Numbered from the whole stretch's first letter, positions 7,066 to 62,118 are shown. The stretch: 63,998 bases of DNA, filler included, from Stramenopiles sp. TOSAG23-6 (GCA_900128565.1; 8 parts of 8 records of this genome joined end to end with filler, not necessarily neighbours in it); one strand, 5' to 3'. Program-made: numbers and translations. The notes: generated by a model not told the origin, from the sequence alone.

Positions 7066-7936
7066 TTAATTGTAATTTACTGAGTCACTCCATGCACGTT
7101 CAGCCTCCCCTTTTGCTACTGAACTTTCAGAGTTAGCAGTACACAAATGAGTTCGAAGACCTTGTCCAAAGTCGATGTATTGTGATAAAATATTTTTTTA
7201 GTAAAAAAAATTGTTAGCTACGAAATTTTCTACTAAAAAAAAATCGAAATTCACAATGAAAACGTTCACTGGTCTAGGATTTTCTTCAATTGCTTTTAGC
7301 ATTCCAACTATACATTCATCCCGAGAAGCAACTAAATCTTCCATTGTTGTTCCTTTTGTCTCTCGTTCGGAACCTGCGACAAGCAATGTTTTCATATCGT
7401 CCGTTACTGGAGGAGCATGTATTGAAAAAGTATTTCAAAATTTCAAAAATTTGTTAGATACAAAATTTAGTACGAAAAAAAATCGAGATTAAAAAAAATA
7501 TTTCTAAAATTTGAAATTCATTATGAAAACGTACAACTAGACGTGATATAATGCGTGTAATATGTCAATTGTGCAACAAATGAGTACATTGAGATACCTA
7601 GGATAAAATTCGGGTTTGTGTGTGTAACACTCAGTAAATTCGAAATTCGTTAGGTACAAAATGTAGTACGGATTAAATTTCAAATTAACTTGGGATGTAT
7701 TTTGGAAAAATATTTCAAAAAATAATTCGTTAGGTACAAAATTGCGTACGAAAAAAAAAAATTCAAAATTGAAAAAAAATAAAACATACGTATTATAATA
7801 TTGATAATAGTGCATATAACATTCTCCAAATAATGTGTACAAAACGATAATTAAAATATAAATGAGTTCTAATTCAAAAAAAAAAAAAATTGTTAGGTAC
7901 AAAATTGCGTACGAAAAATAAATTCGAAATTGAAAA
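7066..7936 (-). CDS. partial intron-rich gene of unknown function; exon phases uncertain
   Basis: Coding-like segments (APPVTDDMKTLLVAGSERE...) between minus-strand family elements at ~7175-7267, 7417-7534 and 7695-7789. Confidence 0.35.
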
Positions 7937-8036
7937 NNNNNNNNNNNNNNNNNNNNNNNNNNNNNNNNNNNNNNNNNNNNTTAATTAATTAANNNNNNNN
8001 NNNNNNNNNNNNNNNNNNNNNNNNNNNNNNNNNNNN
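7937..8036. other. artificial contig spacer (also 15969-16068, 24000-24099, 32026-32125, 40044-40143, 48058-48157, 56054-56153)
   Basis: Identical 100-bp N-TTAATTAATTAA-N linker with stops in all six frames. Confidence 0.98.
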
Positions 8037-8097
8037 TACGAAATTTTGTACCTAACAAATTTTAGTTTTTTTTTTGAAATATTTTTCCAAAATATAT

Positions 8098-8530
8098 GCT
8101 CAGTATGCTTTATAATTGGATTTTGGCCAAAATTGATGGCCAAATTTCTTTTGCTGTTTTTATTACCTATTACTATATTTGTCCACGATATGTGGACAAT
8201 TGAGGACTCATCTAAGCCACGTTTTCAACAGGCGACAGGTGAAAGTCATCGAAAGCATACAAACAGTACGTTTTCATTATGAATTTCTAATTTAATTTTT
8301 TTTTCGTACGAAATTTTGTACCTAACAAATTTTTACTAAAACAAATATTTTCCAAAAATATATGTAAGCCTACAAAACGTGATGAAGTCTCTCTTTCACC
8401 AATTGCTACACGAAATGTCCCAACATTTATATCAGACTTTGATAATGAATTTGTACATTTTTTCAAAAATATTGGAATGATTGGAGGTTTAATTTTATAT
8501 ATTGAACTTTCAAACGAGAATTGTATGTAA
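8098..8530 (+). CDS. DoxX/SURF4-like membrane protein, 3' part; intron 8266-8363
   Basis: Hydrophobic helix FLLLFLLPITIFVHDMW, then after splicing EFVHFFKNIGMIGGLILY. Confidence 0.65.
8266..8363 (+). mobile_element. introner-like GT-AT intron
   Basis: GTACGTTTT..CGTACGAAATTTTGTACCTAAC..AATATAT; the AT end keeps frame to the FFKN motif, the next AG does not. Confidence 0.75.
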
Positions 8531-8658
8531 AAGAATGTTCAAAATCAAATAAATATTTTCAATTTAACTCTCTCTCTATTCTACTATTTTATTTCACTTG
8601 ACTCTCTCTCTATTCTACTATTTTACTTTTGATTGGTATAAAACAAAATACATTCACA

Positions 8659-10483
8659 CTATTGTGACAACTGCATTTCCTTCAATAGTTCAATATTATA
8701 TTCCAGCTGTTGCTTTTCAATACATTTTGTAATCCAGGGATAAGTCTCTGTTATATCTTCCCAATTAATTTTTTTTCCAAAATTGAATATATTTGATGTT
8801 TTAACCATATCTTTGAATTCCAACATTTCATTTGCCAGAAAAAGCGCTATAACTGAGGTTAGTTCCTCCGAAAATCTTTGGGCTATATAACCTTTGTATA
8901 ACAGTTCAATCCAAGCTATATACGACTTGACTAATGAATATTTCACCATATTACGAATCCTAAAAGAACTGCGAATCTGTCGAAGAATGCATGTACTAGC
9001 AGGTGAAGGATTATCCATTGAAAACAATTCAAGTCCCATGTATTTGGAAAAATATTTCAAAAAAATAATCGTTAGGTACAAAATTTCGTACGAAAAAAAC
9101 ACTCGAAATTGAAAAAAAAATAAAACATACATGAAAGTCTCCCCGGTTTTTTTTATTTGCTGTAGGATTTCATCAAAATAAATTACACTTTTAGAAAGAT
9201 CATGTTTACTATTGGAATTGCATAGTGCCTCTGCACAAGTCCATTTCAGAAATAAATGATTTGGATATAATTTAATCAAAGAATTACATGGATTATGAAA
9301 AAATATTTCAAAGAAAAAACGTTAGGTACAATATTTCGTACAAAAAAACAAATTTGAAATTGAAATGAAAACGTATAATATCCAGTTGCTACACCAGAAA
9401 TCTCCGAAATCTCCGATCTCGGGATGTTCGTATCTGGAGCAGGACCTGCCCACCATTCAATAACTAGAACCTGTCTAATACCGCTTGTTATTGGTGCAAC
9501 ACCGTGCATCTCAAATGACCGCCAAAGAATACATATATTGTGAAAAAATATTTTTTTTAAAATCATTAGGTACTAAATTTGGTACGACAAAAAAAAAATA
9601 ATGATAAAAACGTACAGTCGCCCTGATGCATAGTGTACGAGACAACACCTGAAAGGCTATTTTGGGCCATGAACTCTCCACCTGTATAGTTGCTGTAGTT
9701 TGAAAGCATGAAGCCAGCACTACCATGCGAGAAAATGTCCATATGCCATCCTATTTGTGCGGCTTCGAATTCGTCCGTAGAGCCTTCATATTCTAAAAAT
9801 TCAATGCAGCGAATTTTAAGTGTCTGGCCTGTTTTTAACACAGCGGTTTGAAGACCCCATCCAGATGCCTCATCTTGATTTCTGAAAATGTTCTCCAGTT
9901 TTTTAAGAAGTTTTGGATACATATTTTTGAAATGAGTATGTAAATATGTCACTTTATGACCAGGCTCAGGACTCAACTCATTTACCCCAAACTTACGAGG
10001 CGCCTGTTTAAATGCTGCTGGAATACTCTCATCTGCCAGCACGCGATCTTTCACGTTCTTTATATTACGAATATCCTCATCATTTAGAGCATTTGATATC
10101 CTGATTGTTCCAGGCATTAATTCCAGTGTTGAGTTGAGACATGAAAACTCATCTCTCCAAAACGAGGAAATTGCATGTTGCATCTCAGGAGTAGTTATAC
10201 CCACTTCCCCTAGATCTTGCGGTGTGAACATCATAATATCTAAAGTTTCTCCGTCTATGTTGTTTTTTATTAAATTCTTTCGGAATGTTGACACCTGGTT
10301 TTGATCAGGGTCAAGTGAGTCAAGAGTTTGATTACCCTTGTCACTACTAACAACACGATTTAGCCACTCAAGAATATCACCATTTGACCACTGTACTGGT
10401 GATTTTGTCACGCTACATTCATCCACTATCTCACCCAAACTTGATGAAACAAAATGCAGTACAATTAATAGCGGTATTTTCAT
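8659..10483 (-). CDS. secreted 2OG-Fe(II) oxygenase with SAM-like domain; introns 9533-9615, 9288-9376, 9038-9130
   Basis: Signal peptide; WH-D motif, YTGGEF, spliced GD|CILWRSFEMHGVAPITSGIRQVLVIEWW typical of the 2OG-Fe(II) fold. Confidence 0.75.
9038..9130 (-). mobile_element. introner-like GT-AT intron
   Basis: AT|GTATG..core..AAATACAT|G, 93 nt. Confidence 0.75.
9288..9376 (-). mobile_element. introner-like intron with apparent AT-AT ends
   Basis: ATACGTTTT at the family donor position, core present, ends ATCCAT; frame joined correctly. Confidence 0.55.
9533..9615 (-). mobile_element. introner-like GT-AT intron
   Basis: CT|GTACG..TACCTAAT..CAATATAT|GT; restores GDCILW. Confidence 0.8.
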
Positions 10484-15916: not shown

Positions 15917-16265
15917 GTATGTTTTATTTTTTTTCAAATTCGATTTTTTTTCATACGAAATTTTGTACNNNNNNNNNNNNNNNNNNNNNNNNNNNNNNNN
16001 NNNNNNNNNNNNTTAATTAATTAANNNNNNNNNNNNNNNNNNNNNNNNNNNNNNNNNNNNNNNNNNNNCCTTTTGTATTGTAAAAAAAATTTTTTTTTTT
16101 TTTTTTTTTTTTTGTTAGGTACAATATTTACTATGAAAAAAAAATGTAAAAAAAAAATCAAAATTTTTTTTTTTTGGTTTAGGTACAAAATATCGTACGA
16201 AAAAAAAAATTAAAAAAATAAAAATAAAAAAAACGAAAATTAAGTGTAGGGTAAAAAAAACGTAC

Positions 16266-16455: not shown

Positions 16456-16580
16456 ATGTATTTTGGAAAAATATTTCAAAATTTTTTTTTTTTTTAGTTT
16501 CAAAAAAAAAAAAAAAAAAAAAAAAAAAATTAAAAAAAAAAAAAAAAAAATTTTTTAGGTAAAAATTTTTGTATAAAAAA

Positions 16581-16614
<34 letters not shown>

Positions 16615-20217: not shown

Positions 20218-20260
20218 CTAACCCTAACCCTAATTACAATTTTACCTAACCCTAACCCTA
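20218..20260. repeat. interstitial telomere-like (CCCTAA)n tract; (GA)n microsatellite at ~20155-20175
   Basis: CTAACCCTAACCCTAA..CCTAACCCTAACCCTA. Confidence 0.85.
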
Positions 20261-21349: not shown

Positions 21350-23077
21350 ATGAAAAACTGTTACATCAGCATTTTGTCCATTGTATGCTTTTCCTTTGTG
21401 GCAACAGAAGTTATGTCGGCGCTGTCGTCGGAGGTGAAGCGGGCGGCATCCCGTAGCGCTCTCCGCAATCTCCGTAATGCGAATGATCGTGAACGACAGT
21501 ATTCAGTATGGAATAAAACAAAAAATTCAATACGTGAAGATCCAGAGAAGATGCGTAACCTGTTTTTACGACATATTGTTGCTAAATTTCAGTCACAAGA
21601 TCCGAAAGAGACAGAAAAGTATACAAAGTTTTTGAAATTGGCACAAACAATTGAACAACAACAGCTTCAACAAAGTAATGTTCAGTGCCCTTCTGGTCGA
21701 TTACAACAAACTTTTTTCAACGCATATAATTGTATTCTAAATGCCAAAATGGAACTAGGAGAATTGCGACAACAACAAACCAACTTTGAAGGAGCATCTT
21801 CAGTATTCTATCCAGAATGTGAAGTAGCCAGAAAAATTTCGAAATGTTTTGATGATTGTTGTGATGATATAGAAGAATTTGTCAACTTTGCTATGCAAAA
21901 TGTTGGCAAATATCATGTTCAAAGTTTTTCTGCATCTGAAGTTTGCGATGCTTCTCAATACTACGGCTACAATCCATCACAAAAACAATACAAACTCAAA
22001 TTTGAGTGTCAGCGAAGTGTAGATGATCAAAAGAGGTTTGAGGCACAGGAAAAATTACAAAAACAAATAAAGGAAGAAGAGGAAGCCAATGCAAGAAGAG
22101 AGAAGATAAGGAAAGAATCTCAAAAACAAAGAAAACAGCGACTGGCAGAAGAGAAACAGCAACTGGCAGAAGAGCAACTGGAAGAGCAACTGGTAGAAAA
22201 GTTGCAAGAAGAGACAGAGAGAGCTCAAAATTTTTTGATACAATTGAACAAGGAAATTTCAGACACTCAAGAAGAGGAAATGGTCATTCCAAAAGGCAAT
22301 GTATATGCAAAACAATCAAATGATTCGGATCATACTCTAGAAAAGATGTTACAGAACGGGAAAGTGAAGAAAATTGGTAAAGTGATGAAAAGTGGTACAG
22401 ATGGGTTTTTTTATGGAACAGTGAAAGAAAGAGATTTATATGTTGATACATGGTCATCCAAATGTCCTAAAAATGATGGATTTATTGACGCCGCTAGATT
22501 CCCAGAGAGAGCCAAACTTTGGGATGAACATGTTGCACAAAATGGACTCTGTCTCCGATTTTATTACTGTGAAATGAATTCATTGAGTCCAAAAGGTGAA
22601 TTTGTGATACTAAACCCCAAACAGATGATTATTGACTCCCAGTACCAAGATTTGGTGTCAATTTATCCATCATATGCATCAAAATCAGGAAGAAACAATA
22701 CAAAAAAGCCAAAGCCCTTTACATTTACACAAGTCACTTTTCAATTTCAATGCATTGTTTCCACAAAATTTGAGCCTAGGCTACAACAGCGGCAAAAAAA
22801 ACACGGAACAAACACCACTGGATACTATTACGAAACGATGTATGTTTTATTTTTTTTTTCAATTTCAAATATTTTTTTCGTACGAAATTTTGTACCTAAC
22901 GTTTTTTTTTTTGAAAATATTTGTACAAAATACATACTAGGACAGTTTGTATCTAAAGGGAAAGGTTGTGGGAATAAGACATTTGATTTTGATGTAGAAT
23001 CCAAAATAGGAGGAGACAATGTCCCCAGCTCTCATTTGGAAATGGTAACACGGCATACGAGAACCATCCATTGGTGA
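21350..23077 (+). CDS. secreted coiled-coil protein of unknown function; 96-nt family intron 22840-22935
   Basis: Signal peptide, Cys-rich and E/Q/K-rich segments; the ORF reads through an in-frame element. Confidence 0.65.
   Translation: MKNCYISILSIVCFSFVATEVMSALSSEVKRAASRSALRNLRNANDRERQYSVWNKTKNSIREDPEKMRNLFLRHIVAKFQSQDPKETEKYTKFLKLAQTIEQQQLQQSNVQCPSGRLQQTFFNAYNCILNAKMELGELRQQQTNFEGASSVFYPECEVARKISKCFDDCCDDIEEFVNFAMQNVGKYHVQSFSASEVCDASQYYGYNPSQKQYKLKFECQRSVDDQKRFEAQEKLQKQIKEEEEANARREKIRKESQKQRKQRLAEEKQQLAEEQLEEQLVEKLQEETERAQNFLIQLNKEISDTQEEEMVIPKGNVYAKQSNDSDHTLEKMLQNGKVKKIGKVMKSGTDGFFYGTVKERDLYVDTWSSKCPKNDGFIDAARFPERAKLWDEHVAQNGLCLRFYYCEMNSLSPKGEFVILNPKQMIIDSQYQDLVSIYPSYASKSGRNNTKKPKPFTFTQVTFQFQCIVSTKFEPRLQQRQKKHGTNTTGYYYETMYVLFFFSISNIFFVRNFVPNVFFFENICTKYILGQFVSKGKGCGNKTFDFDVESKIGGDNVPSSHLEMVTRHTRTIHW
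22840..22935 (+). mobile_element. introner-like GT-AT intron
   Basis: AT|GTATG..CGTACGAAATTTTGTACCTAAC..AAAATACAT|A. Confidence 0.7.
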
Positions 23078-23999: not shown

Positions 24000-24133
24000 N
24001 NNNNNNNNNNNNNNNNNNNNNNNNNNNNNNNNNNNNNNNNNNNTTAATTAATTAANNNNNNNNNNNNNNNNNNNNNNNNNNNNNNNNNNNNNNNNNNNNG
24101 GGGGGGGGGGAAAAATTTTTTTTTTTAATTTTT

Positions 24134-24186
<53 letters not shown>

Positions 24187-24285
24187 CGAAAAAAAAAAAA
24201 ATCGAATTTTTTTTTTTTTTGAAAAATTTTGTACCTAACAAATTTTTTTTTTAGAAAAATTTTGAAATATTTTTCCAAAATACAT

Positions 24286-27200
24286 GGAGAACACAAATCG
24301 AAAGGTATAAAAACAGCAATAAATATTGCACTGAAAGCCATTACAAACAAATGGGGTGGTAATATTTCGTATAATCCAACTAAAAAAATAGCATCTTTAG
24401 AGTCGATTTTGGAGAAAAAAAAAAAACTGTTGAATGATTTTTATACCGAAAACCAAGATACAATAAATCATGCAAATAGAGTAGCTGCTGCTACAACTAT
24501 TCAGTCTGCTGTACGTCGCCGTCAAGAAAGAATGCGACAAGAGGAAGCAGCAGCAGCAAGAGAAGCTGCTGCTACAACTATTCAGTCTGCTGTTGAGTCT
24601 GCTATTGATTCTGCTGTACGTCACCATAAAGCAACTAATAATAATAATAATAATAATGATGATGATGATGATAATGATGCTCATCAAAAAACAACAGATT
24701 TTTCTGAAACAGATGATGATATTGATAATGTTTATACTACTGCTGATAGTGATAATGTTTATACTACTGCTGATAGTGATACTATTTATACTACAAATGA
24801 TACTACTACAAACCCTAAAAAATACCCTAAAACAAATAGTACTAATGCTATTACAACAAAATATCAACAATTGAAGAAAGATAAAAACGATGCATTCGAA
24901 AAAAAGGTACATGAAGAATTGAAACATTCATTCAGTATTACAAATCCAGTTACAAAAACAAATTTTAAATTTCAATTACAAAAATTGAAATTAAAAAATT
25001 TATCTGACGTTAAAGATATTCAATTAAGAGAAGGAGACACAAATCAATCGCTCAATGTAGAATTAAAAACAGGTAAAATTTTTGTCGAAGCTACAATACA
25101 ACTTGATATAAAGGCTAATAAATGCGCTAGTATATGTCGTCAAGATGATCCAGATACAGCAAAGCATCATGTACGTTTTTTTTTTTTTAAAAAAAATTTA
25201 CGTTTTTTACATTTCGTACGAAATTTTGTACCTAACAAAATTTTTTATTTTTTTTTGAAATATTTTTTCAAAATACATTGTCCTTTATTGAATAAATGGA
25301 CAACAGCTGCTCGTGCAATCCCAAATGTTATCTATCGAACGGCTCCTACTGAAAGCAGTCCCCCAACGTATTGGCGGAATAAAAAGTCATGTCATCGTTG
25401 TCTTGATGATATTGAAAGGTATGTATCGTTACCCGGTAATGAAAATGATTTTGAGAAAATCGGATTAACATACGACTGTGTAGCTAACCCAACGTGGGCA
25501 GATGATCCTAATGCTCCACCTGGTTCTGTATCAACAAGCAAAACATTTACAATCAAAACTTCAATTGAGAACATTGACACGGCGTTTGATTTGTTTCTTG
25601 GACTAAATTTTAAAAAAATGTTAAATCTCGAATTAGGCGATGTTGTTCAAGAACCAATCCGCTGTTTATCTTCTTTAATTATGGGTTCTGAGGATACAGA
25701 AACATTTGGAATGTTAGAAGGAGATGAAACACAACAAAAAGCGATACAATTGGTTCATATGGATGTTAATATTGGAACATGTATGTCTTATTTTTATTTA
25801 TTTTTTTCAAAATTTCAATTTTTTTTTCGTAGTAAATTTTGTACCTAACAAAAAAAATGTAAAATTTTCAAAAAAAAAAAAAATATTTTTCCATAATATA
25901 GTGTCACAAATTGAATTTTTTGGTATTGAGAATCAAACATTGTTGACTGCTTTGGATGTCAGTGCTGAAGTTTTAAATATTGTTTTTAAGAATTTAATTT
26001 CTAGATTTACGCCAAGTCTTGCACAAAATGCAATTCGTCCACTTATGAATGTATGTTTTTTTTTTATTTTTTTAAAATTTCAATTTTTATTTTTTTTTTC
26101 ATACGAAATTTCGTACCTAACAAATTTTTTTTTTAGAAAATTTTCAAATATTTTTCCAAAATGAATGATTCGATTCATAAGTATTTAGATACACCAGGAA
26201 ATACGATATGTCCATCTAGAAAAAGAGCTACAATTAGTGAAGTCATTCAGATAATTCTTGGAATTAAATTACATAAACCTCTTGATGATATACGAAATTC
26301 ATTTGATTCGAAATCAACAATAAAAAGTTTTTTTGATACTCAAAACCCTGTCATTATAACAGTTGAATCATCATCAGTGCAATCATCAGGTGCTGGTATA
26401 GGGGCTACAGTCAGTGACGCAAAAGAACAAAAAGAACAAAAAGAAATATCAATCACACCTCAAGACATTATTGATGTATGTTTTTTTTTTTTTTTTTTTT
26501 ACAAATTCTGAAATTTTTTTTTCATAAAAATTTTGTACCTAACAAATTTTCAAAATTTTTTTTTTGAAATATTTTTCCAAAATACATGATTTGAAAAAAG
26601 AATTTGATACTTTGAAAGATGAATCGTTTATACCTAAGAATGCAATTGACTTGTCTTTGCCTAAATTAGCTGAAACAATTTCTGAAAACATAAAAAAGAG
26701 AAATGCATTATATGTTGCACCTGGCCAATTCACTAAACAACATGTAACTGAAGCTATATTTGATATGTTACCAAAGACATATCAAAAACCTATGCTTCAA
26801 ACTTGGGCTGAAAAAGAATTTAAGATTGGAAAAGGTTCTGTTATGTCCTTATTTTTGTATAGTTTGACCAAGAACAAACAACCAACCAATGATCAATGTA
26901 AAGACAAAGTTTCAGTACAACAATGGTTTAGGGATATTGTAAGTGATTTTCAAACATTTCATGTAGTGGATTTTGAGGAAACGTCAAGTAACGCTCAAGT
27001 TGATAAATTGAAATTGAGATATTTAGATCAAACTGAAACACCAAAGGAAAATGCTGCATGGGTTTTGGAACGGACATTTAGTGAAGGTAAACTTTTTGGT
27101 CCAGGTAGTAAGGAGCGGGAAAAATTGCTACCCCCATGCTCCAGAGTGAAAGATGGCGAAGAAAAAAAAAAGACAATACCAACATTAAATAGGAATTTAG

Positions 27201-30200
27201 CAAAGACTATCGCTTCTACAAAAAATAATACAGAAAATAATACAGTAAATGATGATGATGAAGCGGAGTCAGAAGAAAAAACTTGTTTAAACATAATTGA
27301 TTTTAATAATTATTGGATAATGGATTATATTCAACTTTTAAAACATATATTTTTGGAAGGGTATAGTGCAAATGGTGAATACAAGATTAATACGATTTTA
27401 CGTAAAATATTTGAGCATGGGAATATGCTCAATCGACCTCTTGATATTATTATGTATGATAGTTTGCGTGATGAACGAGATATCTATAAAAATCAAGCTA
27501 AAGATGCTGATCCTGAAGATGAACTTTTAGTTAAATTTAAAAGAATTGAGATCACAGGAGCGAATACGTTTAATGGTGATCCTGAGAAATTTAAACCATT
27601 CGAAGTTTTTTCACCAAAGGAATTAACAAAATTAGGTCAAAATGACTCGACCACAAATAACCCTACATTACGTTCAAGTCATACCATTAATACTAAATTC
27701 GAAATTGAAAAATTGGATGTTGACCTATTTCTCGAAATTGTTTCAAAAAAACCACCTCGCTTCCCTGAAGAAGCTGCTCTTGTTGGAATTAAAAAAACAG
27801 ATACCATTACTGAAACAGGACAAATTAAAGTTAGGGTTAGGACAAAAAATATCAAGGTTGATTCGTCTGCTTTAGTAGCGTTTGATAAAGATATTTTGGA
27901 GGAAACCATGATTGGATCAATTTACAATAGTCCAGGTACCTGTTTAGCCCATATGATTAAGGCTGCTGAATTTACTAAATTTACGATAGATGCTGATGTT
28001 GATGATATTAAAGTTGAGGATGTTAAAATGGGTGGTGATGACATCCTTACAGGTGGAACAAAGATGGTGATTGAGTCGTCTATTCATTTATTTAATATGA
28101 TTTTAAAAGAGAGAATTAAATCCTTTCTTAGCCACTTTATCATGCCACTTGTCAATGATGAAATAAAATCATCTATCAAAGACCAAAAGCAAAAAGATTG
28201 TGATATTCCACTTGGTGATTATAATGATATCGTTAACGTTGGAGCTGATGCATTTGTTCAAAATTGGAGGCATAAGTTACAAGTTTTGTTTGAAAATCCA
28301 GATTTTTTAAATATGGAAATAGGTGATGTCATTAGTGGTTGGAAGTTAAATGCATCTTTGGACTATTTGGACACACAAATTGAAGAATTGAATCAAGAAT
28401 TAATTGATATTCAAAACAATTCCCAAAATTCAAAAACAGATAAAGAAAAAAAAGATGAAATTATCAAAAAGAAAACTAAAATTATTGAAAGAAAACAAGA
28501 AATTATTCAACAAGCTAAAGAAAAAGCGAAAAATGATGCAATATTGGCCCGATTAAAATCAAATTATGATGAAAATTATGATGAAAATTATGATGAAAAT
28601 TATGATGAAACAATTGCTGTAGACAAAACAAATAAACAATTTGAAAAAAAATCTACAAAAGCATTGACATTGACTGGCACTACTACAACAAATGATGATG
28701 TAGACGAGTATGTCTGTCCTGCAGATTTTTGTAATGAAGATGTATTATATGTATGTTTTATTTTTTTTTCAATTTTTTTTTTCAATTTTTTTTTGTTTTT
28801 TTTTCATAGTAAATTTTGTACCTAAACCTAAAAGATTTTTTTTTTTTTTTNAAATNTTTTTCCAAAATACATAGTATATATGATAAAACTTTAGATTTTG
28901 CTGATCCAAAAGAAAAAGGTAGTTATAATCCAATATCCATTGGATTATTAGATTCACAATTTAAAAATGTAAAGATTGATGGTGTAGCCTCAATACAAAA
29001 ATCTGATTTGTTAGAGATCATCCCAAAAGATAAATTTGGAATAAAAAATCATATTATTTCAGGTAGTAAACCAATAGGTCCATTAGGAATCATGATTGAT
29101 TTTATGTTTGATTTAACTCAAGGCAAAGAAAATTTGGCCATACATAATGCATTGCGCATAGGTGTAAAGATGTTGGATGTTGACTTTATTGCTAATTTTC
29201 ATGCCCAAGTATCGAGGTTAAGAGTCTTAGAAATGCCTATCGTACAATTATTAACTCCAAGTTGTTGGTTATCAACACTGACAACACAACAAGCTCAAAC
29301 GGGGTTAGAATTAGATCCTTTGTTTGATCATCATGGAAATTTAATTCCTAAACGATACGATGGTCGAAAGTTCAAAGCTTGGGTTGATGAATGTATGTTT
29401 TTTTTTTTTTTGAAAAAAAAATCGAATTTTTTTTTCATAGTAAATTTTGTACCTAACAATTTTTTTTTTTTTTTTGAAATATTTTTCCAAAATACATTTT
29501 CCTTATCATTTAAGCGATTGGGTATAGAAATCAATTGTATAGAAGAAGATCGGAGTTGTTCTTCTCCAGGTTTTAAAGAAATACAAAAGAACTTAGATGA
29601 CGATACAATCAAATCCTTTACGAACGACATCAACACTGCTATTCATTATGTATTTCAACATTTTTCTAAACTTGAAGGAAGCGAAGCTTTAGATATTGTC
29701 TTGAATAAAATGCCAGGGTATTGCGAGAGGAACACAATGTTAATGTATGTTTTATTTTTATTTTTTTCGGTAAAAAAAAAATCGAATTTTTTTTTCGTAC
29801 GAAATTTTGTACCTAACAAAATTTAATTTTTTTTTTGAAATATTTTTACAAAATACATTGCCCCTGGTCGAAGAAAACCACAACCACCAAGAAAAGATCC
29901 AAACACGAAACCTGGACATCATTTTATGAATAATGTTGAAGATGGAATGAAAACATTTCGTGACATGTGGGGTGGACTGTTATTCTGGATTTCTGTGGCG
30001 TTTTTAAGTATTTGTATCTGTATGTTTTTTTTTTTTTGATTTTTTTTTTGATTTTTTTTTTCGTACGAAATTTTGTACCTAACAAAAAAAACAAAAAAAA
30101 CCTAAAGATTTTTTTTTTGAAATATTTTTCTAAAATACATGTATATGTCTTGGTTGTTGTGTGTGTAGACGACGAAGACGCGCAGATCGTGTAATTTTGG

Positions 30201-30854
30201 AATATCATGAAAAACTATCAGCAGCAGCTCATTTAGCAAAACAACATACAATAAATCCTAACCCTAACAAAATCCTTGGAAATGATCAAAGTAATCATGA
30301 CATTTGTGACAGTTCATCTTTTTCTTCTCTTGTATCTTCATCTACATTATCCAATAGGACCAATAGGAAAAAAAGAAACTCAATTCAAAAACAAAAAAGT
30401 GAAGTTTTAAATCGTTTCAAAAGACAAAAAAGTGGAAATTCAATTTCCCCCCAAATTGAGGAAGAGATTGAGGAGATTGAGGAGTTAGAAAATGGTACAA
30501 GAATTTGTAGTCACCCTACAAAAACCCCTAACCCTAGTATTCTAACTACAATGACTACAATTACACCATCCATAACAAATGAGACAAAAGACGAGACAAA
30601 AGAGACAAAAGAGAAAAATCATTCGGATTTGTTAGGTACAAAATTTGGTACAGAAAAAAATAATCAAAATGATCCGAACCCTAACCCTAACCCTAACGCA
30701 ACGAAATCAAATCAATCAAATCATTCAAATTCGAAGCGTTATTGTTCATCTTTTGATCTAACGACATTTGATGATAGTAAACATCAACTCGTTACAGAAC
30801 ACTTAGCTGATGAACATTCTATGTATGTTTTATTTTATTTTTTTTTTTTTACCG

Positions 30855-30886
<32 letters not shown>

Positions 30887-31905
30887 TTTTTTTTTTTTTT
30901 TTTTTAAAGGAAAATTTTTTCCTAAACATTTTTTTTTTTTTTTTTTTTTTTTTTTCACAATGCAGTGTTACTGTTGACGTTGCTGGAGATTCCATTTTAA
31001 AACAATTACCCGTCTTTACCTTTTCATTAGCTGGTTCGTTGAAAGACATGTATGAGGCACGTGCCTATGCTTTAGTTTTGATAGTAGGGCTATTTTCTGG
31101 TGTTTGGCCATATGTCAAATGTTTGCTACTCTTGTACTCATGGTTTGCTCCTCCTTGGGTATACTCATCCCGATCTCGCGGGAAAATGTTACAAGCTCTA
31201 GATATCATGGGGAAATGGTCTTTGATGGATGTTTATGTTTTGGTATTGTGTATGATTGCGTATAGATTACGTATTTTCAATCCTCCCAATTCTCTAATAT
31301 TGTTACCAGAACAATTTGTTGTTGTGGATATTGAAGTAGTTCCAATGTGGGGATTATATGTATGTTTTATTTTTTTTTTTTAAATTTGAAATTGAAATTT
31401 TTTTTTCGTACGAAATTTTGTACCTAACAAATTTTATAATTTTTTTTTGAAATATTTTTCCAAAATACATGCGTTTCTTGTGGCTGCAATTTCGGCTCTT
31501 CTCGTAAATCATGTAGTCATCCATTCTCATAGAAATGCAATTGCTGAAGAAATTTCTGTTGCTGAAATTGCAAGAGCTTGTGAAAAAGCTAAAGCCAAAT
31601 GGAAGAGAAAACACGAAAAACACGAAAAACAGAAATTAAAAATGCTGTTATTGAAATTGCAAGAGCTTGTGAGAAAGATAAAGCCAAATGGAAGAGAAAA
31701 CACGAAAAACAGAAATAATCATAATGGGGATCATTTTCAACTAACAATGTTTGAAAATAATCAAAATAATCAAAATGATCAAGGTAATATCATGAGTAAT
31801 ACAACGGATAATACGGATAATACAATAAATAATACAACAAATAATACGACGAATAACGAATTTGATGATGAGTTTGAACTCATTGCTGATCATGTAAACA
31901 ATCAT
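24286..31905 (+). CDS. large multi-exon membrane protein with C-terminal PqiA-like domain, partial at both ends; ten internal family introns
   Basis: Continuous frame after removing 25171-25278, 25781-25901, 26051-26166, 26476-26587, 28751-28872, 29393-29497, 29745-29858, 30020-30140, 30823-30965, 31360-31470; FSGVWPYVK..LDIMGKWSLMDVYV..WGLY|AF is PqiA-like. Confidence 0.7.
25781..25901 (+). mobile_element. family intron with GT-AG ends
   Basis: Same core; ends AATATAG where the others end AATACAT. Confidence 0.8.
30020..30140 (+). mobile_element. introner-like GT-AT intron
   Basis: CT|GTATG..core..AAAATACAT|GT; joins TM helix ..SICICICLGCCVCRRRRR. Confidence 0.75.
31360..31470 (+). mobile_element. 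introner-like GT-AT intron
   Basis: TAT|GTATG..core..AAAATACAT|GCG; restores WGLYAFLVAA. Confidence 0.8.
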
Positions 31906-31936
31906 GTACGTTTTCAAAATTGAATTTCAAAATTTA

Positions 31937-31986
<50 letters not shown>

Positions 31987-32601
31987 TCCGCACCAAAAAA
32001 ATTTAAAAAAAAAAAAAAAAAAAAANNNNNNNNNNNNNNNNNNNNNNNNNNNNNNNNNNNNNNNNNNNNTTAATTAATTAANNNNNNNNNNNNNNNNNNN
32101 NNNNNNNNNNNNNNNNNNNNNNNNNAATAATATGGAAAAATATCTCGTAGGTAGAATGATAAATAATATATAACTTATCTAGTAGAATCTATAATTATAA
32201 TAAAAGGACAGTACATCATGCTAATGTAATTTTTAAATTATCATTATCATCTAAGGATTGAGTTCATTAATATTTTTATTAATTAAGACATTAATTCAGT
32301 TTTTTAAAAATTCATTAACTTAGGGTTAGGGTACTCGATTTTGAGACTAGAATCTGATAAACTCTCTCTCGTGTCTCGCTGATCTCTCTCACTGATCTCT
32401 CACTGATCAGCCTATAAAGTATATTTTTCCAGTATACGTCGAGGTACTGTAATTAAAACGCGGAAAATTCTATCTGTCCACTCCGGGATAAATGTGTAAT
32501 GAATGAAACCTTTTCACACTCTTGCCATATTCTTTCTTATTTTGTATTATTAGGGTTCGTAAGTGATTTCTACTATAATAGTTGCTTGTCCAATAAAGGT
32601 G

Positions 32602-49268: not shown

Positions 49269-52200
49269 ATGCCGAAGAAGAAAACGGCAAGTGCACTAAG
49301 GCGTAAAGCCAAGCGTGCGCAACGCTTTTCTGGTGGTGCTGTATCGATAATAGATGCGAAAAATGCTAAAAAGGTGCAAAAAAAGAAAGAGGAGAAGAAG
49401 AATCGCCGTGCTGCAGGAAAAGATTTTAGTAACTCAAGACATGTTACAAAAAAAACAAAACACACCTTAGCAAAGGGTGCATCTAAAAATTCCAAAAAGC
49501 AATGGAAACAAAATGTTGGTGTACGTCAATCATCAGGTTCTGCTACTCTTGATATGAATGATGAAAATGAATATGAAGTTGGAAGTCGTGAGCATGCGGC
49601 CAAAGTTGCTGCAGAAGTTTTAGCTCAAGAAGAAGCTGACCTTGCTCCGATGGATGAGGAATATGCAGAGTATTCATCATTTCTTACCCAGATGAATCTT
49701 CCTGAAGTAGGAGAAAATCAGTCTAATTCTAATAGAAAGAAAAAACGCGACATAAAAAAGAGGAAGCACTCTGAAGTATCCGTTGGTGATGCCAAGCTTC
49801 CAGTAAATGATCACGTTAATAGTGACGACGCTTCCGTCAACAATGGTTATGATAATACTGCGAATAAAGAATACATTTCAAGTGATGATTGTGACGTGGA
49901 TCTTTCATCTGATGAAGATGGAGAAAATGAAGAAGCAGAATTTGAATTGAGTCGTCGACGTGTTCCAAATAACTGGAAAGATTGTGGTGATGAGAGGGCT
50001 GAGCGACTTCCAGTGAGAGACGCTGTAACTGGTAAAATGGTCATACCAACAGCTAAGCTTGATTTAGGGAGTTTAAGTCGTCGTGAAATGGCCCGATTGG
50101 CCCAAAAAAAACAAAATATATCAAAAGACTCCATTGAAGTCGATTCCACTCAGAAAGATAATGATGAAGTTGTTGACAATGATAAAGTTGTTGATGATAC
50201 AGTAGAAGATATAATATCTGATAAAATAAGTATTAATACTGAAATCAAAGATGATATAATAGAAACAACATTTACTGATGAAGAAATTTTACTGTATAAG
50301 AAAAAAAATCGTCGATATTTTCAACTTTATATTGCAGAGTTATGCGAATGTATGTTTTATTTTTTTTTTTTTGTATGAATTTTTTTTTCATACGAAATTT
50401 TGTACCTAACAATTTTTTTTTTTAAGAAAATTTTGAAATATTTTTCCAAAATACATGTATAATTTCTGATCCAACGAAAGCTGTTCGTTCTCATCATGGT
50501 GGTCCTTCTAAAATACAAAATCTATTAAAGATTTGTAAAGGTGAGACAAATTATGAATCAATTAGCTCTTCTGGTAATGATCCTACAACAATGAAAACAA
50601 TGAAAACAATGAAAACAGATACATATATTCAGAAAATGGCAATGCTTTCTCTGTACGTTTTCAAAATTTGAATTTTTTACCTATATATTTTTTCATAGTA
50701 AATTTTGTACCTAACTATTTTTTTTTATTTTCGGTAAAAAAAAAAAATATTTTTTATAAGATATGGTCGCTGTATTTGCAGATATTCTTCCAGGTTTTAG
50801 AATACGACTTCCCTCTGCTGCGGAAATGCGAATGTCAGTTACGAAAGAAGTCAAAATGCTTCGCGCAAAAGAAAAAGCCACATTAGATGTATATTCTTCA
50901 TTTTTGAAATTTTTGAGCCAGGAAATACATGGTCGCCGTCCAGTGGGACATCATGGAACGAACCGTTTTTCTGGACGATCTAAAAATGGAAATTCAGCTA
51001 AAGAAAATGTATTTTTTTTTTACAAAAAAATCGAATTTTTTTTCGTACGAAATTTTGTACCTAACAAATTTTAGTTTTTTTTTTACAAAAAAATCGAATT
51101 TATTTTTTATAGTAAATTTTGTACCTAACAAATTTTAGTTTTTTGTTTTGAAATATTTTTCCAAAATACATGAGGAATTTGCACAAGCTAAAACAAAGAT
51201 GCAAAAAGATCATAAAGCAAAACAAGGTCGAGGTCCTCTTTTTGTGACTGCAGTTCGATGTTTGTCTCGTTTGTTGGAAAGTCGACCGGAATTTAATTTT
51301 TGGGAGTCTTTAGTAGCTACACTTGTACCTCTCGCCGCAAACCGTAAAACGATAGTCTGTGAAGAAGTATGCCAATGTTTTCATCAGATGTTTAAGAAAG
51401 ACATAAAAGGAGAATTTTCAAGTGTAGCTGTCCGTTCAATTGGCAAAACTATGAAATCTAAAAACAATGTTGTTAGTAGTCATTTAATGAGATGCTTACA
51501 AGAAGCTAAAGTTTCGACTACAGAAAAAATAGTAAAAAAACGTAAACGAAAACGTCGAAGATTGGATGAAGTAGCTGCTCAAATGGAAGAAGCAAATGCT
51601 ACTGAAAATGCTGCGACAGTTGCTGCATTTCGACAAACGACACTTCGAGAGATTATGATCATTTATTTACGATGTATACGGAATTCTTGTGCAACCTCTC
51701 CTGCATTACCTGCTGCATTGAAAGGTGTCACTAGAGTCTGTCATTTAATGAATCTCGACATTGCAGAAGAAGTGATTGAACTGTTTCGTGGACTTTTGGA
51801 AGATCCCAAACTTCCATTGGAAAGTGGTTTGCAGATTGTATTAGCGACACTTCGAATGCTTCAAGGTCCTGGACGAGAGTTAGATGCTGATATTAGTACT
51901 TTCCTTAATTACGTGTCAGAGTCATTTTTTAGAGTTGGAAATATTTCAAGATTTTATAGTTGTGTAGAAACAGCTATTAATTGCGTTGATAATGCATTGA
52001 TGAAGAGGCGGGAAAGGCAACCTTCGCGTATACGTCAAATTGCAAGTCGAATTCTTGATGCTAGTCTTCAAATGCCTCCTCACTCTACTTTAGCATTACT
52101 CAGTTTATTTCGTAGTTTATCAGCGAGGTATCCTGCGCTTAAATCATTATTTCTAGCTCCTGAGAGTGATATTGCTAACCCTAACACTAATTTTTCTCAA

Positions 52201-54656: not shown

Positions 54657-55110
54657 AAAAGCTTGAATTTTTTCACTTGTATAACAACAACCTATCTGGT
54701 AAATTGGTGTTTATAAATTGTTACAACCAGATGCAGATATATTGTACTGTGACTTGAATTTGTTTTTTTAGAGTAAGTGAAGTCAATTTTTCATTTTAGA
54801 TGATTTTTTTTTAATGTTAAAAAATGAATTGAAAATATTTCTGTTGATCTTACATAATTTTAATGAATCTATCGGCTATCGCTCGAGATTCTAAATTTAA
54901 AAAAAATGAAATTGTACCTAAATTTGTAGACCCTAACCCTACTATTGACTATACTACTGACCTATAATTAATTCGAAAATACTATTGCTGGCCGCGGCCA
55001 ACATGGCCATTGGCCGCGGCACACTCACTTCAACCTTTCATTCATTGTCTCTTTCAAAAGCTTTTATAATTTAGGTAATTTTCGATTGTTATTTACCCAA
55101 TCCTCAAAGA

Positions 55111-55968: not shown

Positions 55969-56252
55969 GTGCGTTTTATTTTTTTTCAATTTCAATTTAA
56001 TTTTTTTTTCGTACGAAATTTTGTACCTAACGATTTTTTTTTGAAATATTTTTNNNNNNNNNNNNNNNNNNNNNNNNNNNNNNNNNNNNNNNNNNNNTTA
56101 ATTAATTAANNNNNNNNNNNNNNNNNNNNNNNNNNNNNNNNNNNNNNNNNNNNGNCAGAACTTGTTGTTTTACTTTTATGGCATCCAGTATGAAACATGT
56201 CGTATCAATAGAGTATACTAGTTGCAGATAGTAATTATTACAGTGCATCATA

Positions 56253-56762: not shown

Positions 56763-56812
56763 ATTCAAAAAAATTATATTTTTTTTTAATCTACAAACTA
56801 TTTTTTTTAAAT

Positions 56813-58294: not shown

Positions 58295-59452
58295 TTTGCA
58301 AAGTGTTCCAATCGGCAAAGACACATAATAAAAAAGCTTGTTGTTGTTATGACGTCGCACGTGTGTGTCAAAAACACGAAATATGGGATTAAAATATGAA
58401 ATTTGAGATTCTTGGTGAAAGGAAGGCCATTTTTTATGTTTTGAATTAAGTAATGGTAAAGACTTTTTAAGTGGTGTAGATGAGTAAAAACTGTGTGATG
58501 AATGTTGAAATTGGGGTGTTATACAATCGCTCACAGTTAAATTAGCTTGCCGGTAGGTTTAAAACTATTTTCTATGTGGATGCATCTATCTAAGCTGGAA
58601 GAAATATGATGCCTGATTCAAGGTGTGTGGTAGGCTTTACGTATATATAACGTAAAATTAATATATCTATTTCGACGAATATGGTCATGAGTGGGGGAAT
58701 AATGATTATAAAAGACTAAAGACAAAAGAGACGTAAATAGATTTGGATGCGTAAGGTTGTACAAATCGAGTTCAGTTTTGTTTCCTCGTTATAACTTAAT
58801 ATACTTAATATAGCTTTATTCAATAAAATATTGAGTTTATAATAACTATATTTTCGAGAATGATCATAATTATGAGCAAACTTTAGTCAACTTTTTTCTC
58901 TAGGTGTTTTTTCTTCTGCTCTTCAGTTAGATATCGACTAGCTTTATTGGCAGCGTGGATTCCTAAACTCGCGTGCTCATCGTGGGTCATCTTTTCCGCA
59001 TTTTTGCTACTCATAAAAAAAAAGAGCAGTATTGGAAGTAATATCCAAATGAATCCGTTATCAACTGTCATGAAATTGTCTGTAAGGGTAAATTTGTTTT
59101 TGTTTTAACAAATGTGTGTGTTTCAAAAGATTTCCCCGGTCGTTTCTGCCTTGCCTTCTTTTAGATATAGTATGATATGAAATAGAAACGTATCTTTGCG
59201 CTTGCAGCCGCTTGCCTTGGCTTGCCTGCATCAAGATTTCGTGTCGTGCGACTCGTTTCAAAATATATTAAACAGCAGGTTTGTCAGAGTCAATCAATGG
59301 CCAAATTGAAATTGGCTCTCGCCACGCGTGTCTTCCTCCATTTTTTGACTACTCAAACGGAGCGAGAAGCCTAGTTTTCCCTGGGGAAGTATAAGTGCTT
59401 TAGAGGTGGCGACATTAGTCTCTAGTTATAAGACAGGTAGAATACTTTTACG

Positions 59453-62118
59453 ATGGCGGGTGGACAAGTTAACATGCCGGAAATCCTGGCCAACTGTCAG
59501 GTTCCAAACGACGAGATTCGTAATCACGCGGAGAAAATGTTGACCGATATGCGGAACAGCAACCTTGGTGCTTTTGTGTCTTTACTCGCCCAAGAACTCT
59601 GTGTTGAGGGTAAGAATGTTCAACTACGTCAGCTCGCTGGTTTACAGCTTAAGAATACATTGGATGCTCAAGATGAGGCGCTTGCTCAGCAACGTGCTGA
59701 TGCCTGGCTTTCTGTTGCTCCAGAGATTCGCGCCAAAGTAAAACATGGGGTTTTAACAACACTTCAATCTCCTGACCACAAAGCTGCCCATACATGTGCC
59801 CAGGTGATAGCAAAAATCGCACGAATTGAGTTTCCAGCTGGTAAATGGAACGAGCTTGTGCCAACACTCCTGCAAAATGTACAACAGGAAGCAAACGACG
59901 GTTTAGTTCAATCTTCCCTTCAGTCTCTAGGGTATTTCTGCGAAGAGGTCGACGCTGACAGTATACAGCAAACAGTTGTTGATCAGATTCTTACCGCTAT
60001 TGTACAAGGCACAAAACGTCAGAAGTCAAAGGATATTGTCCATGCAGGAGCGATGGCCATGCTTCACGCGTTGGACTTTGTCCACGCTAATTTTACTAAA
60101 AAGCAGGAACGCGATGCTATCATGAGTGCCATTATGACTACTTCGTTAAATCATGAAGAGAAAGTACGCGTTGTTGCATATGAGTGTATTGGACAGGTAG
60201 CGAGCTTATACTATGAACATCTCCGAGATTATATGCAAGATCTTTTTAAAATGACTTTTAACACTGTTCGAACAGACTCTCCCACAGTGGGTATGCAAGC
60301 CCTTGAGTTTTGGTCTACTCTGTGTGACACTGAGCTCGGAATCATAGATATGAAGGAAAATGGTGAAGAAACTATTGCATGTGCCCATTACATCAAAGGT
60401 GCGTTGCATCCTCTTGTGGAGCTGTTGACCGAAACATTAACTAAACAAGATGATGTTCAAGATGATGATACTTGGAATATTGCAATGGCTGGTGGTACTT
60501 GTCTTTCTCTTGCTGCTCAAGTTGTTCGTGACGATATTGTTCCTAAAATCACACCTTTTATTCACCGAAATATTCGCGATCCAAATTGGCGCAAACGTGA
60601 AGCTGCAATGCTTGCATTCGGTTCGATAATGGAAGGTCCCGATGAACGTACATTGGGTCCTATGTATGTTTTCAAAATTGAATTTCTAATTTATTTATTT
60701 TTCATACGAAATTTTGTACCTAACGAATTTCGAATGTAACATTTTTTTTTTCACAATACATGGTGGAACAAGCATTACCTTTATTACTGAATCTGATGAA
60801 AACCGATACCGATTCGAGAGTGAAGGACACTACTGCGTGGACTATTGGTCGTATTTGTGGGTTACATATTGGAGCTGTAAAACCAGGAATGTGGCCAGAG
60901 CTAATGCATGTATTGATGCATTCTCAGAATGATGAACCACGAGTTGCTGCCAACATATGCTTCGCTTGTAATAATTTAGCTCAATCGATGGAAGAATTCT
61001 CTGATAATGAAGGAAGTAATGCTCTATCGCCATACTTCAAAGGACTTGTGGAAAAACTTTTATCTACTGCTGATCGAGACGATTGGGATATAAATAACTT
61101 ACGAGTATCAGCATATGAAGCAGTGAATATGTTGGTGTCTAGTGCTGCTGAGGATATGAAACCTCTCATTAAAGAATTAGTGCCTTATTTCTGCGGGAAG
61201 TTGAACGATTCTCTAAATTTTAAGATAGTCACTACGGATGACAAAGATGAACACTATCAGTTGCAAGCTCTTTTGTGTGGTACAATACAGACTGCGATAA
61301 ATCGTCTGGATGATGAGATAAAGTCACAAGCTGATACAATAATGAAACTTTTATTAAGGGTATTTAGCTGCAACTCGGCTACAGCTCACGAAGAAGCATA
61401 CATGGCCATTGGAGCTCTAGCAAATGCGGTTGAACAAGACTTTGATAGGTATATGAATGTATTTGTGCCATTTCTTAAACGAGGTCTCGAACGTCACGAT
61501 GAGCACCAGGTGTGTGTCGTTGCCGCTGGAGTAGTTGGTGATGTGACACGAGCGTTAGAGCAAAAGGTCACTCCTTACTGTAAAGATATAATGGCACTCC
61601 TTATCCAAAATCTCCAAAATTCTAATCTTGACCGTGCTGTGAAACCTCCAATACTCGGTGTTTTTGGAGATATTGCATTGGCTATCGGAGGTGACTTCAA
61701 TTTCTTTTTGCCAGTTGTTATGACAATGCTTCACCAGGCTGGTAAAATTCCTACTCCTGATGATGCAGATGAAGATATGGTTGAGTATATAGCCACTCTG
61801 CGAGAAAACATACTCGATGCTTATGCAGGAATTATCCAGGGTATGCATGAAGGCAATCAAGCTGCAATGCTCGCTCCATTTGCTGACCAAATTGGTCAGT
61901 TTCTTGGCACAGTTTCAATGGATCCTCAAAGAGATGATGCTACTAGTCGCTCTATTGCCGGTGTGTTAGGTGATTTAGCAATGTCTTTGGGAAGTAGGGT
62001 AAAACCAATCGTGACTCATCAGTTTGCACAGGGTGTCCTTGGAGATTGCAAAAATTCTCCAAATGAAGATACGCGTGAAATGGGGAAATGGGCGACTACT
62101 AAAATTTTGGAACTCTGA
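59453..62118 (+). CDS. KPNB1: importin subunit beta-1; GT-AT intron 60664-60761
   Basis: RQLAGLQLKN, QALEFWST, DDDTWNIAMAGGTCL, WRKREAAMLAFGSIMEGP, VKDTTAWTIGRIC, VKPPILGVFGDIALAIG. Confidence 0.96.
60664..60761 (+). mobile_element. introner-like GT-AT intron
   Basis: CCT AT|GTATG..CATACGAAATTTTGTACCTAAC..CAATACAT|G GTG; no AG anywhere in the intron; restores TLGPMVEQALP. Confidence 0.88.

Follow-up and report, generated by a model that had tools for sequence, protein, structure and literature searches.

A high-copy, introner-like family of probable GT-AT introns in genes of a MAST-3-like stramenopile

The 63,998-nt stretch of DNA analyzed here (the window), from Stramenopiles sp. TOSAG23-6 (GCA_900128565.1), carries 38 copies of a short repeated element that interrupts conserved genes and appears to behave as an intron with GT at its 5' end and, in most copies, AT at its 3' end. 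Judged from the DNA alone, these elements are probably introner-like spliceosomal introns, most plausibly derived from a transposon, that bring their own donor, branch site, T-rich tract, and YAT acceptor. With less assurance, we lean toward the broader view that in this MAST-3-like stramenopile, an abundant, uncultured marine protist, one introner family has filled the genes, and that the major spliceosome uses AT as a normal 3' splice site in more than 80% of introns while retaining the GT donor and the CTAAC branch motif. The terminal AG is one of the least variable signals of eukaryotic genes, and few lineages are known to depart from it genome-wide.

The window strings together contigs of one assembly and is no single continuous locus. 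Its eight pieces, arranged in descending size from 7,936 to 7,845 bases, are split at N44-TTAATTAATTAA-N44 linkers (7937-8036, 15969-16068, 24000-24099, 32026-32125, 40044-40143, 48058-48157, and 56054-56153). The core of the element, TACGAAATTTTGTACCTAAC, has 41 matches in the whole window at three or fewer mismatches, compared with 0.01 expected from shuffled sequences. Copies were curated by the joint presence of the donor, the core, and the 3' block. An initial annotation of this DNA had estimated 35-40 copies, and the curated count falls in that range: 38 copies between 7175 and 60761, of which 32 are complete, five are cut by contig ends, and one is degenerate. Twenty-nine lie on the plus strand and nine on the minus strand, in at least 12 different genes over the eight contigs. 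The examples that had been named at the outset, in importin beta, CFAP251, NOC3, a 2-oxoglutarate (2OG) oxygenase, TMEM115 (DUF1751), and a PqiA-like gene, were all located. The copies are listed below together with one comparator intron; slashes mark exon-intron junctions or the corresponding points in the protein, and copies marked "frame test" were included in the reading-frame analysis described after the list.

4465-4560, plus: comparator non-family intron, glutamate synthase; GT..TAG (GDANDY/V.KGLSG)
7175-7267, minus: family copy; donor GAACGT, ends CAT; open frame across (ENPRP/VDFGQG)
7417-7534, minus: family copy, probably an intron of the 5' untranslated region (UTR); GTACGT..CAT
7695-7789, minus: family copy, probably a 5' UTR intron; GTATGT..CAT
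7870-7936, minus: degenerate or truncated copy at contig end; core at 7892-7911
8037-8097, plus: 3' part of a copy cut by contig start; ends TAT
8266-8363, plus: family copy; CA/GTACGT..TAT/G
9038-9130, minus: family copy, 2OG-oxygenase/TPR gene; AT/GTATGT..CAT/G
9288-9376, minus: family copy, 2OG-oxygenase/TPR gene; donor ATACGT, ends CAT; one-residue alignment gap three residues past the junction, exact ends tentative
9533-9615, minus: family copy, 2OG-oxygenase/TPR gene; CT/GTACGT..TAT/G; restores GD/CILWRS
16073-16265, minus: family copy, duplicated core; 3' end CAA, 4 nt from contig end
16456-16684, minus: long diverged family copy; GTTTGT..CAT
22840-22935, plus: family copy; AT/GTATGT..CAT/A
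24100-24285, plus: 3' part of a copy at contig start; ends CAT
25171-25278, plus: family copy; CAT/GTACGT..CAT/T; no variant listed at the last T in four runs
25781-25901, plus: family copy, canonical acceptor in the same register; ends TAG
26051-26166, plus: family copy; last 6 nt ATGAAT equal the 6 exon nt preceding the donor
26476-26587, plus: family copy; donor, core, and 3' block; frame test
28751-28872, plus: family copy; frame test
29393-29497, plus: family copy; frame test
29745-29858, plus: family copy; frame test and fold
30020-30140, plus: family copy; CT/GTATGT..CAT/G
30823-30965, plus: degenerate copy; ends CAG
31360-31470, plus: family copy, PqiA-like gene; frame test and fold
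35780-35885, plus: family copy, CFAP251; TT/GTATGT..CAT/G; SLV/VGLE gap-free versus homologues
36678-36781, plus: family copy, CFAP251; PTY/GGPLN restored; internal TAG 13 nt past branch A bypassed
40144-40194, plus: 3' part of a copy at contig start; ends CAT
40378-40473, plus: family copy, fully canonical; AG/GTATGT..TAG/G
40547-40656, plus: family copy; single open reading frame (ORF) through three junctions to stop
47273-47372, plus: family copy, TMEM115 (DUF1751); TT/GT..CAT/G
47444-47543, plus: family copy, TMEM115; joined-exon ORF
47608-47761, plus: family copy, duplicated core, TMEM115; ends TAT
47943-48057, plus: 5' part of a copy cut by contig end
48187-48370, plus: family copy, duplicated core; ends AAT
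50350-50456, plus: family copy, NOC3; IAELCE/CIISDP gap-free
50653-50764, plus: family copy, NOC3; CT/GTACGT..TAT/G; AMLS L VAVFADILPGFRIR gap-free
51009-51171, plus: family copy, duplicated core, NOC3; frame test; junction region not conserved
55969-56053, plus: 5' part of a copy cut by contig end; donor GTGCGT
60664-60761, plus: family copy, importin beta; AT/GTATGT..CAT/G, no AG inside

The overall consensus of the family is (AT)/GTAYGTTTT…TTTCGTACGAAATTTTGTACCTAAC…GAAATATTTTTCCAAAATACAT/. An alignment of 26 copies resolves this into three conserved blocks, (AT)/GTATGTTTT – T-rich spacer – TTTTTTTCGTACGAAATTTTGTACCTAAC – spacer – TTTTTGAAATATTTTTCCAAAATACAT/G. The 32 complete copies have a median length of 109 nt (range 83-229), cover all three classes of length modulo 3, and occur in all three codon phases. 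In four copies (47608-47761, 48187-48370, 51009-51171, and 16073-16265), which are 154-193 nt long, the core is duplicated in tandem.

The 5' boundary is that of a conventional donor. Among the complete copies, the first two bases are GT in 30, AT in one, and GA in one; A occupies position +3 in 31, G position +5 in 31, and T position +6 in all 32, and by these per-position tallies the GTAYGT donor is kept in 29. The two donors lacking GT are ATACGT at 9288-9376 and GAACGT at 7175-7267, and the reading frame remains open across both. These two donors are candidates for sequencing errors, tolerated variants, or dying introns.

The 3' boundary is where the family departs from expectation. The last two bases of the complete copies are AT in 28, AG in three, and AA in one; A stands at position -2 in every copy, and position -3 is C in 24, T in six, and A in two, from which tallies YAT is the terminal triplet in 26. 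Three copies lacking their 5' side likewise end in AT, bringing the visible 3' ends of the family to 31 AT of 35, with three AG in the same register and one AA. The AG-ending members (25781-25901 and 40378-40473, both TAG, and 30823-30965, CAG) carry these triplets at the position where other members have CAT or TAT, and their frames are intact.

Removal of the element from GT through AT leaves at least 40 open codons on either side of the junction in 22 of 30 copies. When the acceptor is shifted by -2, -1, +1, or +2 nt, only 3, 5, 3, and 5 of the 30, respectively, pass the same test. Five of the eight failures involve short adjacent exons, and the joined exons give single open frames. Joining 40195-40377, 40474-40546, and 40657-40790 produces one frame that runs to a stop codon (whole stretch 40195-40790, three junctions), and TMEM115 with its three copies removed has 253 codons and no stops, compared with 16 and 14 stops in the other frames. 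Orientation is equally consistent. Twenty-eight of the 32 complete copies are sense to the ORF that they interrupt, and the remaining four are located in probable UTRs or at the ends of contigs. No clear ORF contains an antisense copy, in agreement with the sense orientation first reported. This sense-only arrangement fits removal at the RNA level.

Because reading frames fix the length of a removed segment only modulo 3, exact length was judged against homologous proteins. Six junctions fall in conserved motifs and align without gaps: one in importin beta, two in CFAP251, two in NOC3, and one in the 2OG oxygenase. When importin beta is compared with PDB entry 1ukl_A, the upstream exon extends to P404 and the downstream exon resumes from Q408, with the three intervening residues of that chain (LVI) matched by MVE in the spliced product; the intron between them (60664-60761) has no AG inside, as had been claimed for it. 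Both CFAP251 junctions, SLV/VGLE and PTY/GGPLN, are gap-free. So are two of the three in NOC3 (IAELCE/CIISDP and AMLS-L-VAVFADILPGFRIR), the third lying in unconserved sequence. The 2OG oxygenase junction at 9533-9615 (GD/CILWRS…H.V.P…G.R…EWW) aligns without a gap to 11 homologues, and PF13640 is present in some of these. The identity of this gene comes from those distant homologues; its single exons gave no significant match in Pfam or PDB. Three further junctions (9288-9376, 9038-9130, and 51009-51171) lie in poorly conserved stretches.

The initial proposal that GT..AT removal restores conserved motifs in importin beta, CFAP251, NOC3, and the 2OG oxygenase is thus borne out by gap-free alignment. 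Of the two other genes that it listed, TMEM115 has a frame open over 253 codons after removal, and the copy in the PqiA-like gene was included in the frame test. The sequence evidence supports the view that the elements behave as introns bounded by GT and AT.

The CFAP251 gene supplies a useful comparison because a public protein model from a relative, P0121, is 88% identical to the window protein. P0121 reads VVCLE and TYVCPL where the GT..AT product of the window reads VVGLE and TYGGPL. In the nine other aligned CFAP251 homologues, the first G of the GG pair is found in nine of nine, the second in eight of nine, and the G at the other junction in seven of nine. If GT-AG boundaries are forced on the window gene, with the donor placed at the second GT within GTATGT and the acceptor at an AG located 4 nt beyond the CAT, the exact residues of P0121 are obtained. 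A predictor limited to GT-AG therefore mis-splices these introns, and the relative from which P0121 comes very probably has the same two introns. Since the P0121 residues break the conserved G and GG, the canonical alternative is worse than GT..AT at these sites.

Two ways in which the AT ends could be mistaken had been raised at the outset, namely the use of nearby AG acceptors and the presence of G instead of T in raw reads. Neither gained support. The +4 GT-AG form in CFAP251 breaks the conserved GG, and most copies have no nearby downstream AG of the kind used in that form. No variant at 10% or more is listed at the last T of the three fully covered copies, which end at 25278, 26166, and 26587.

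A scan of the window for other frame-breaking introns found only the one in glutamate synthase (4465-4560), which is GT-AG. With this intron included, 31 of 36 visible intron 3' ends are AT, so that most detectable introns in the window do appear non-canonical, as the initial annotation had stated. The glutamate synthase intron is 96 nt long and contains TTTGTACTACAAAAC, which weakly resembles the family core. This intron is possibly an ancient member of the family that has since decayed.

The internal signals of the family resemble those read by the major spliceosome. CCTAAC or a form with one mismatch is present in 31 of 32 copies at 33-53 nt from the 3' end (99 nt in one copy), and a T-rich tail follows it. 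The suggestion of U2-type signals, a GTATGT donor and a CTAAC branch, stands with GTAYGT in 29 of 32 copies and a CCTAAC-like site in 31 of 32. The reported absence of the U12-type donor RTATCCTT stands for the donors and fails for the window: the motif appears in none of the 32 aligned donors, in which G at +5 (31 copies) and T at +6 (all 32) stand where it has C and C, and occurs five times in the window, counting both strands. The U12-type branch site, TCCTTAAC, is close to the 3' end, typically 10-20 nt from it; the branch-like site here is farther away. On sequence grounds, the signals are supported as U2-type and not U12-type, even though the family fails to end in the YAG of U2-type introns.

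Several features suggest how such an end might be chosen. In five copies, including the verified copy at 36678-36781, a TAG located 10-16 nt after the branch-like A must be skipped, and the last 22 nt of the element are conserved well past the needs of a normal acceptor. The 3' end is therefore defined by more than the first AG after the branch. Candidates for this role are a changed U2AF, a changed second-step factor, or pairing between the intron ends. With respect to the last of these, a 6-bp stem (AUGUAU/AUACAU) joins the two ends, with two exon bases taking part, in six of six minimum-energy folds.

In the mechanism that we propose, the elements would be spliceosomal introns of one high-copy introner-like family that probably arose from a small non-autonomous DNA element and would have spread by transposition. 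Each copy would supply its own GTAYGT 5' splice site, CCTAAC branch-like site, and T-rich tract, and would end in YAT in place of the usual YAG. Removal from GT through AT would take away the element plus one flanking copy of AT, and the host frame would be restored. A U2-type spliceosome that accepts, or even favors, T as the final intron base would carry out this removal. If AT acceptors are used in this way, one would expect alterations in U2AF1/U2AF2 or in Prp8, Slu7, or Prp18 contacts, or else a second-step pairing of G(+1) with U(-1).

Evidence for a dispersed, mobile origin comes from abundance and from the element ends. In run X1, the summed depth is 54,848-655,643 in bins containing elements and 160-862 in most bins away from them, very roughly a 100- to 1000-fold difference. 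From a 17.7-Mb assembly of this run, 8,273 contigs were placed on 4.7 kb of the window. About half of the 14 internal contig ends in the window lie inside or adjoin an element copy, as is expected when a dispersed repeat breaks an assembly. Contigs with similar elements are present in four runs belonging to three studies, one of these runs being a seawater metagenome from a different year; the elements are not an assembly artefact. Their ends resemble terminal inverted repeats of 6 nt (ATGTAT/ATACAT), and an AT direct repeat is present at 19 of 32 flanks. In the copy at 26051-26166, the terminal ATGAAT departs from the consensus and equals the six exon bases before the donor. Conservation covers approximately 60 of about 100 nt, among them a near-palindromic core of 25 nt.

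A perfect 26-nt palindrome, ATTAGGTACAAAATTTTGTACCTAAT, is found outside the introns at 41495-41520, with a near-copy at 41539-41564. These sequences are located 100-170 nt upstream of the start of an M16 peptidase gene, between divergent genes. The intron core resembles half of this palindromic motif, and a protein-binding site may be common to promoters and the element. One exact match to a 20-mer of the core, in a Bacteroidales metagenome-assembled genome (L001 6187-6206), has no other feature of the family and was rejected as chance.

A number of observations weigh against the reading of these elements as mobile introns spliced from GT to AT. The inverted repeat is just 6 nt long, and the apparent target duplication is an invariant AT with no locus-specific signal in 31 of 32 copies (the exception is 26051-26166). 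Neither an empty site nor a polymorphism nor an autonomous partner was observed. The spacers between the conserved blocks differ greatly and are unrelated, and two CFAP251 introns are seemingly shared with the relative whose protein is 88% identical; much of the conservation may therefore reflect constraint instead of recent copying. Linkage between 5' and 3' variants is not significant (7/4 versus 7/14, Fisher P = 0.14). The ATACGT and GAACGT copies may be defective or differently spliced, and the RNA folds are barely more stable than those of shuffled sequences (z from -0.1 to -2.9). All six verified junctions have T as the last exon base and G as the first base of the next exon, so that homology cannot separate TG..xA, GT..AT, and TA..TG; the GT..AT register was chosen because it alone fits every copy, coincides with the textbook donor, and is shared by the AG-ending members. 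Finally, no spliced joint over 24190-28850 in four runs (X1, X3, X4, and X5) is among the 15 of 354 joints listed, a result that is uninformative on expression. None of the runs listed for 24100-32025 is recorded as RNA, and the sole one labelled "metatranscriptomic" was flagged as probably DNA. These points on ends, spacers, shared introns, and linkage are also what favors the view that the elements are GT..AT introns that never moved, with a long splicing consensus converged upon or kept for a co-evolved spliceosome. Such a consensus is seen in intron-poor lineages whose 5', branch, and 3' motifs are extended. It can be added on this side that the core 20-mer found no match in metagenome and viral contig collections. 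Nevertheless, the conserved core extends far past what a branch site needs, four copies carry tandem core duplications, and the palindrome is also present outside introns. Moreover, the glutamate synthase intron must be spliced even though it has none of the blocks, and the contig breaks and depth are those of a dispersed repeat. We therefore regard non-mobile constraint as unlikely, and an introner origin as likely but unproven.

The remaining alternatives concern how, or whether, the elements leave the RNA. Removal could proceed by a non-spliceosomal route in which pairing of the ends sets the cuts, as proposed for euglenid, Amoebophrya, and diplonemid introns; the end stem in all six folds, the five skipped TAGs, and the over-conserved 22-nt end count in favor of such a route. 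However, the donor, the branch-like site, and the T-rich tract are widespread in the family, and signals of this kind are missing from euglenid nonconventional introns (PMC11282704). Where +4 is C or -3 is T, the pairing partner shows no compensating change, the fold z-scores are weak, and the AG-ending members share the register, all of which leaves this route distinctly improbable. It has also to be asked whether the true ends are AT..AC (U12-type, or U2-type AT-AC), with boundaries two bases upstream. The donor follows an AT in 19 of 32 copies, compared with a 9.4% background for this dinucleotide, so those copies could equally be written AT..AC and give the same mRNA either way. The other 13 have no upstream AT, and for this reason three of the six verified junctions (35780, 50653, and 9615) cannot be written in that form; together with the absence of a ATATCCTT-type donor from every copy and the distance of the branch-like site from the 3' end, this makes AT..AC ends very improbable. 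We give even less credence to the idea that the elements are not removed from RNA at all, whether as pseudogene insertions or artefacts of assembly or amplification, or that they are excised from DNA like ciliate internal eliminated sequences. The data do come from single amplified samples, and the joints listed include none that is spliced, but the interrupted genes are conserved and single-copy with open, conserved exons, and the recurrence of the elements across studies does not suit an artefact. Excision from DNA would not be expected to impose a strict sense orientation, and the same 15 of 354 DNA joints contain no precise skip of an element, although this last point is weak.

Our preferred reading, transposon-derived introns removed by the major spliceosome, has partial precedents in other lineages. 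Henriet and colleagues are said to have described, in 2019, non-canonical introns of Fritillaria derived from miniature inverted-repeat transposable elements (MITEs). AT is the commonest intron 3' end in Fritillaria, at 44% of introns in F. pellucida and 34% in F. borealis (PMC13326754). Fewer than 10% of F. borealis introns are GT/AG, YAY occurs before the 5' site and at the 3' end, and U2AF is duplicated (PMC13326754). The initial annotation knew of no described dominant GT-AT class; none was found for the present lineage, but the Fritillaria figures qualify the statement in general. The likeness is considerable. In both cases, short introns of transposon origin (a probable one in the present family) dominate, in the genome there and in the window here. 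AT is the leading 3' end in both, each retains a uridine-rich tract, and a triplet tends to recur before the 5' site and at the intron end. This triplet is YAY in Fritillaria and mostly NAT here, with NAT before the donor in 19 of 32 copies and YAT in 10. In contrast, the 5' ends in Fritillaria are likewise non-canonical and very diverse (AG/AC, AG/AT, and others), whereas those described here are GTAYGT, in one family with a single boundary type, and the host is a stramenopile protist rather than an animal. Removal by the U2-type spliceosome has been demonstrated in Fritillaria, whereas here we infer it from DNA alone.

Introners provide the second precedent. These elements supply one splice site, borrow the other from the target duplication, and are common in aquatic protists (PMC9860276). 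Like the introners of Micromonas, Aureococcus, Symbiodinium, and Chrysochromulina, the present family consists of related short introns in unrelated genes of an aquatic protist; introners of those hosts number in the hundreds to thousands (PMC9860276, PMC12130899, PMC11282704). As with introners, too, the element would carry one splice site and acquire its partner at the insertion site or from the target duplication, terminal inverted repeats and target-site duplications often accompany such insertions, and mRNA length would be unchanged. The described introners use GY..AG, unlike this family, in which the co-opted 3' site would be AT. A 2025 introner survey dropped families with mainly unfamiliar splice sites unless these were supported by transcripts (PMC12130899), and a GT..AT family without RNA data would therefore have been dropped.

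Two other groups invite comparison. In Amoebophrya, more than 60% of introns are non-canonical and some are introners (PMC7789003). As here, non-canonical introns form the majority, a repeated subset has terminal inverted repeats and direct repeats of 3-5 nt, and classical predictors fail (PMC7789003). Amoebophrya differs in its highly variable splice-site pairs, in a nuclear-gene GC content of 53.75-58.48%, and in having no family-specific inverted repeats (PMC7789003); its U1 small nuclear RNA is also apparently absent (PMC11282704). The window instead has one boundary type, canonical donor and branch signals, and AT-rich DNA. The nonconventional introns of euglenids and diplonemids share with this family pairable ends, junction repeats resembling target-site duplications, and a proposed MITE origin (PMC11282704, PMC12621601). 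As described in those texts, however, they have no U1-complementary donor or polypyrimidine tract, and they end in variable or G/C-rich sequence; in Euglena the excised introns are circles. The family described here departs from that type, with its donor and T-tract conserved and an end stem of just 6 bp. By analogy, then, the family works like an introner and has a 3' end like that of Fritillaria introns, and differs from both sets in having a canonical donor and branch site together with one type of boundary, in a stramenopile host.

Literature searches yielded no account of GT-AT introns in this lineage, and none is given in the main texts of single-cell and metagenome genome papers on the group. 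Those texts mention introns, if at all, in passing or with regard to genome architecture, and splice sites are not among the topics. If our reading is correct, dominant non-canonical splicing would have arisen independently in a protist. Such a host would offer a natural system with the change confined to 3' splice-site recognition, thereby isolating 3'-end recognition in the second step, and it would add a case in which introner gain accompanies a shift in splice-site tolerance. There are practical implications as well. Standard predictors force GT-AG boundaries, and proteomes of this group, which is ecologically important, likely hold many small errors or broken genes, of which P0121 is an example. 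Introner surveys that take annotated or canonical introns as their starting point would overlook families of this kind.

With regard to the host, the GC content of the window is 29-41%, and the best hits of its proteins, among those named, fall among stramenopiles. After P0121, the closest matches to the CFAP251 exon are oomycete, Platysulcus-like, and brown-algal proteins. By these best protein hits, the host looks close to the MAST-3 stramenopiles. A search of metagenome contigs for orthologous loci with the CFAP251 exon matched no relative, and Rfam and tRNA scans of the window matched no RNA gene.

Several minor features of the window can also be recorded. A single stop codon at 34586-34588 separates an in-frame DDRGK-domain ORF from the CFAP251 ORF, which might represent a tiny spacer or some linkage between them. 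A GC-rich palindromic sequence, GGCCGCGGCC…GGCCGCGGC, lies in an AT-rich intergenic region at 54990-55020. Telomere-like CCCTAA/TTAGGG runs of two to three units are located at 20222-20233, 32320-32331, and 54929-54941, all intergenic and upstream of genes, and the last of these is beside a GTACCTAA motif (54905-54941). A further telomere-like run at 30679-30696 falls within a long open frame, in which its translation would be PNPNPN, and is adjacent to a core-like palindrome at 30631-30650.

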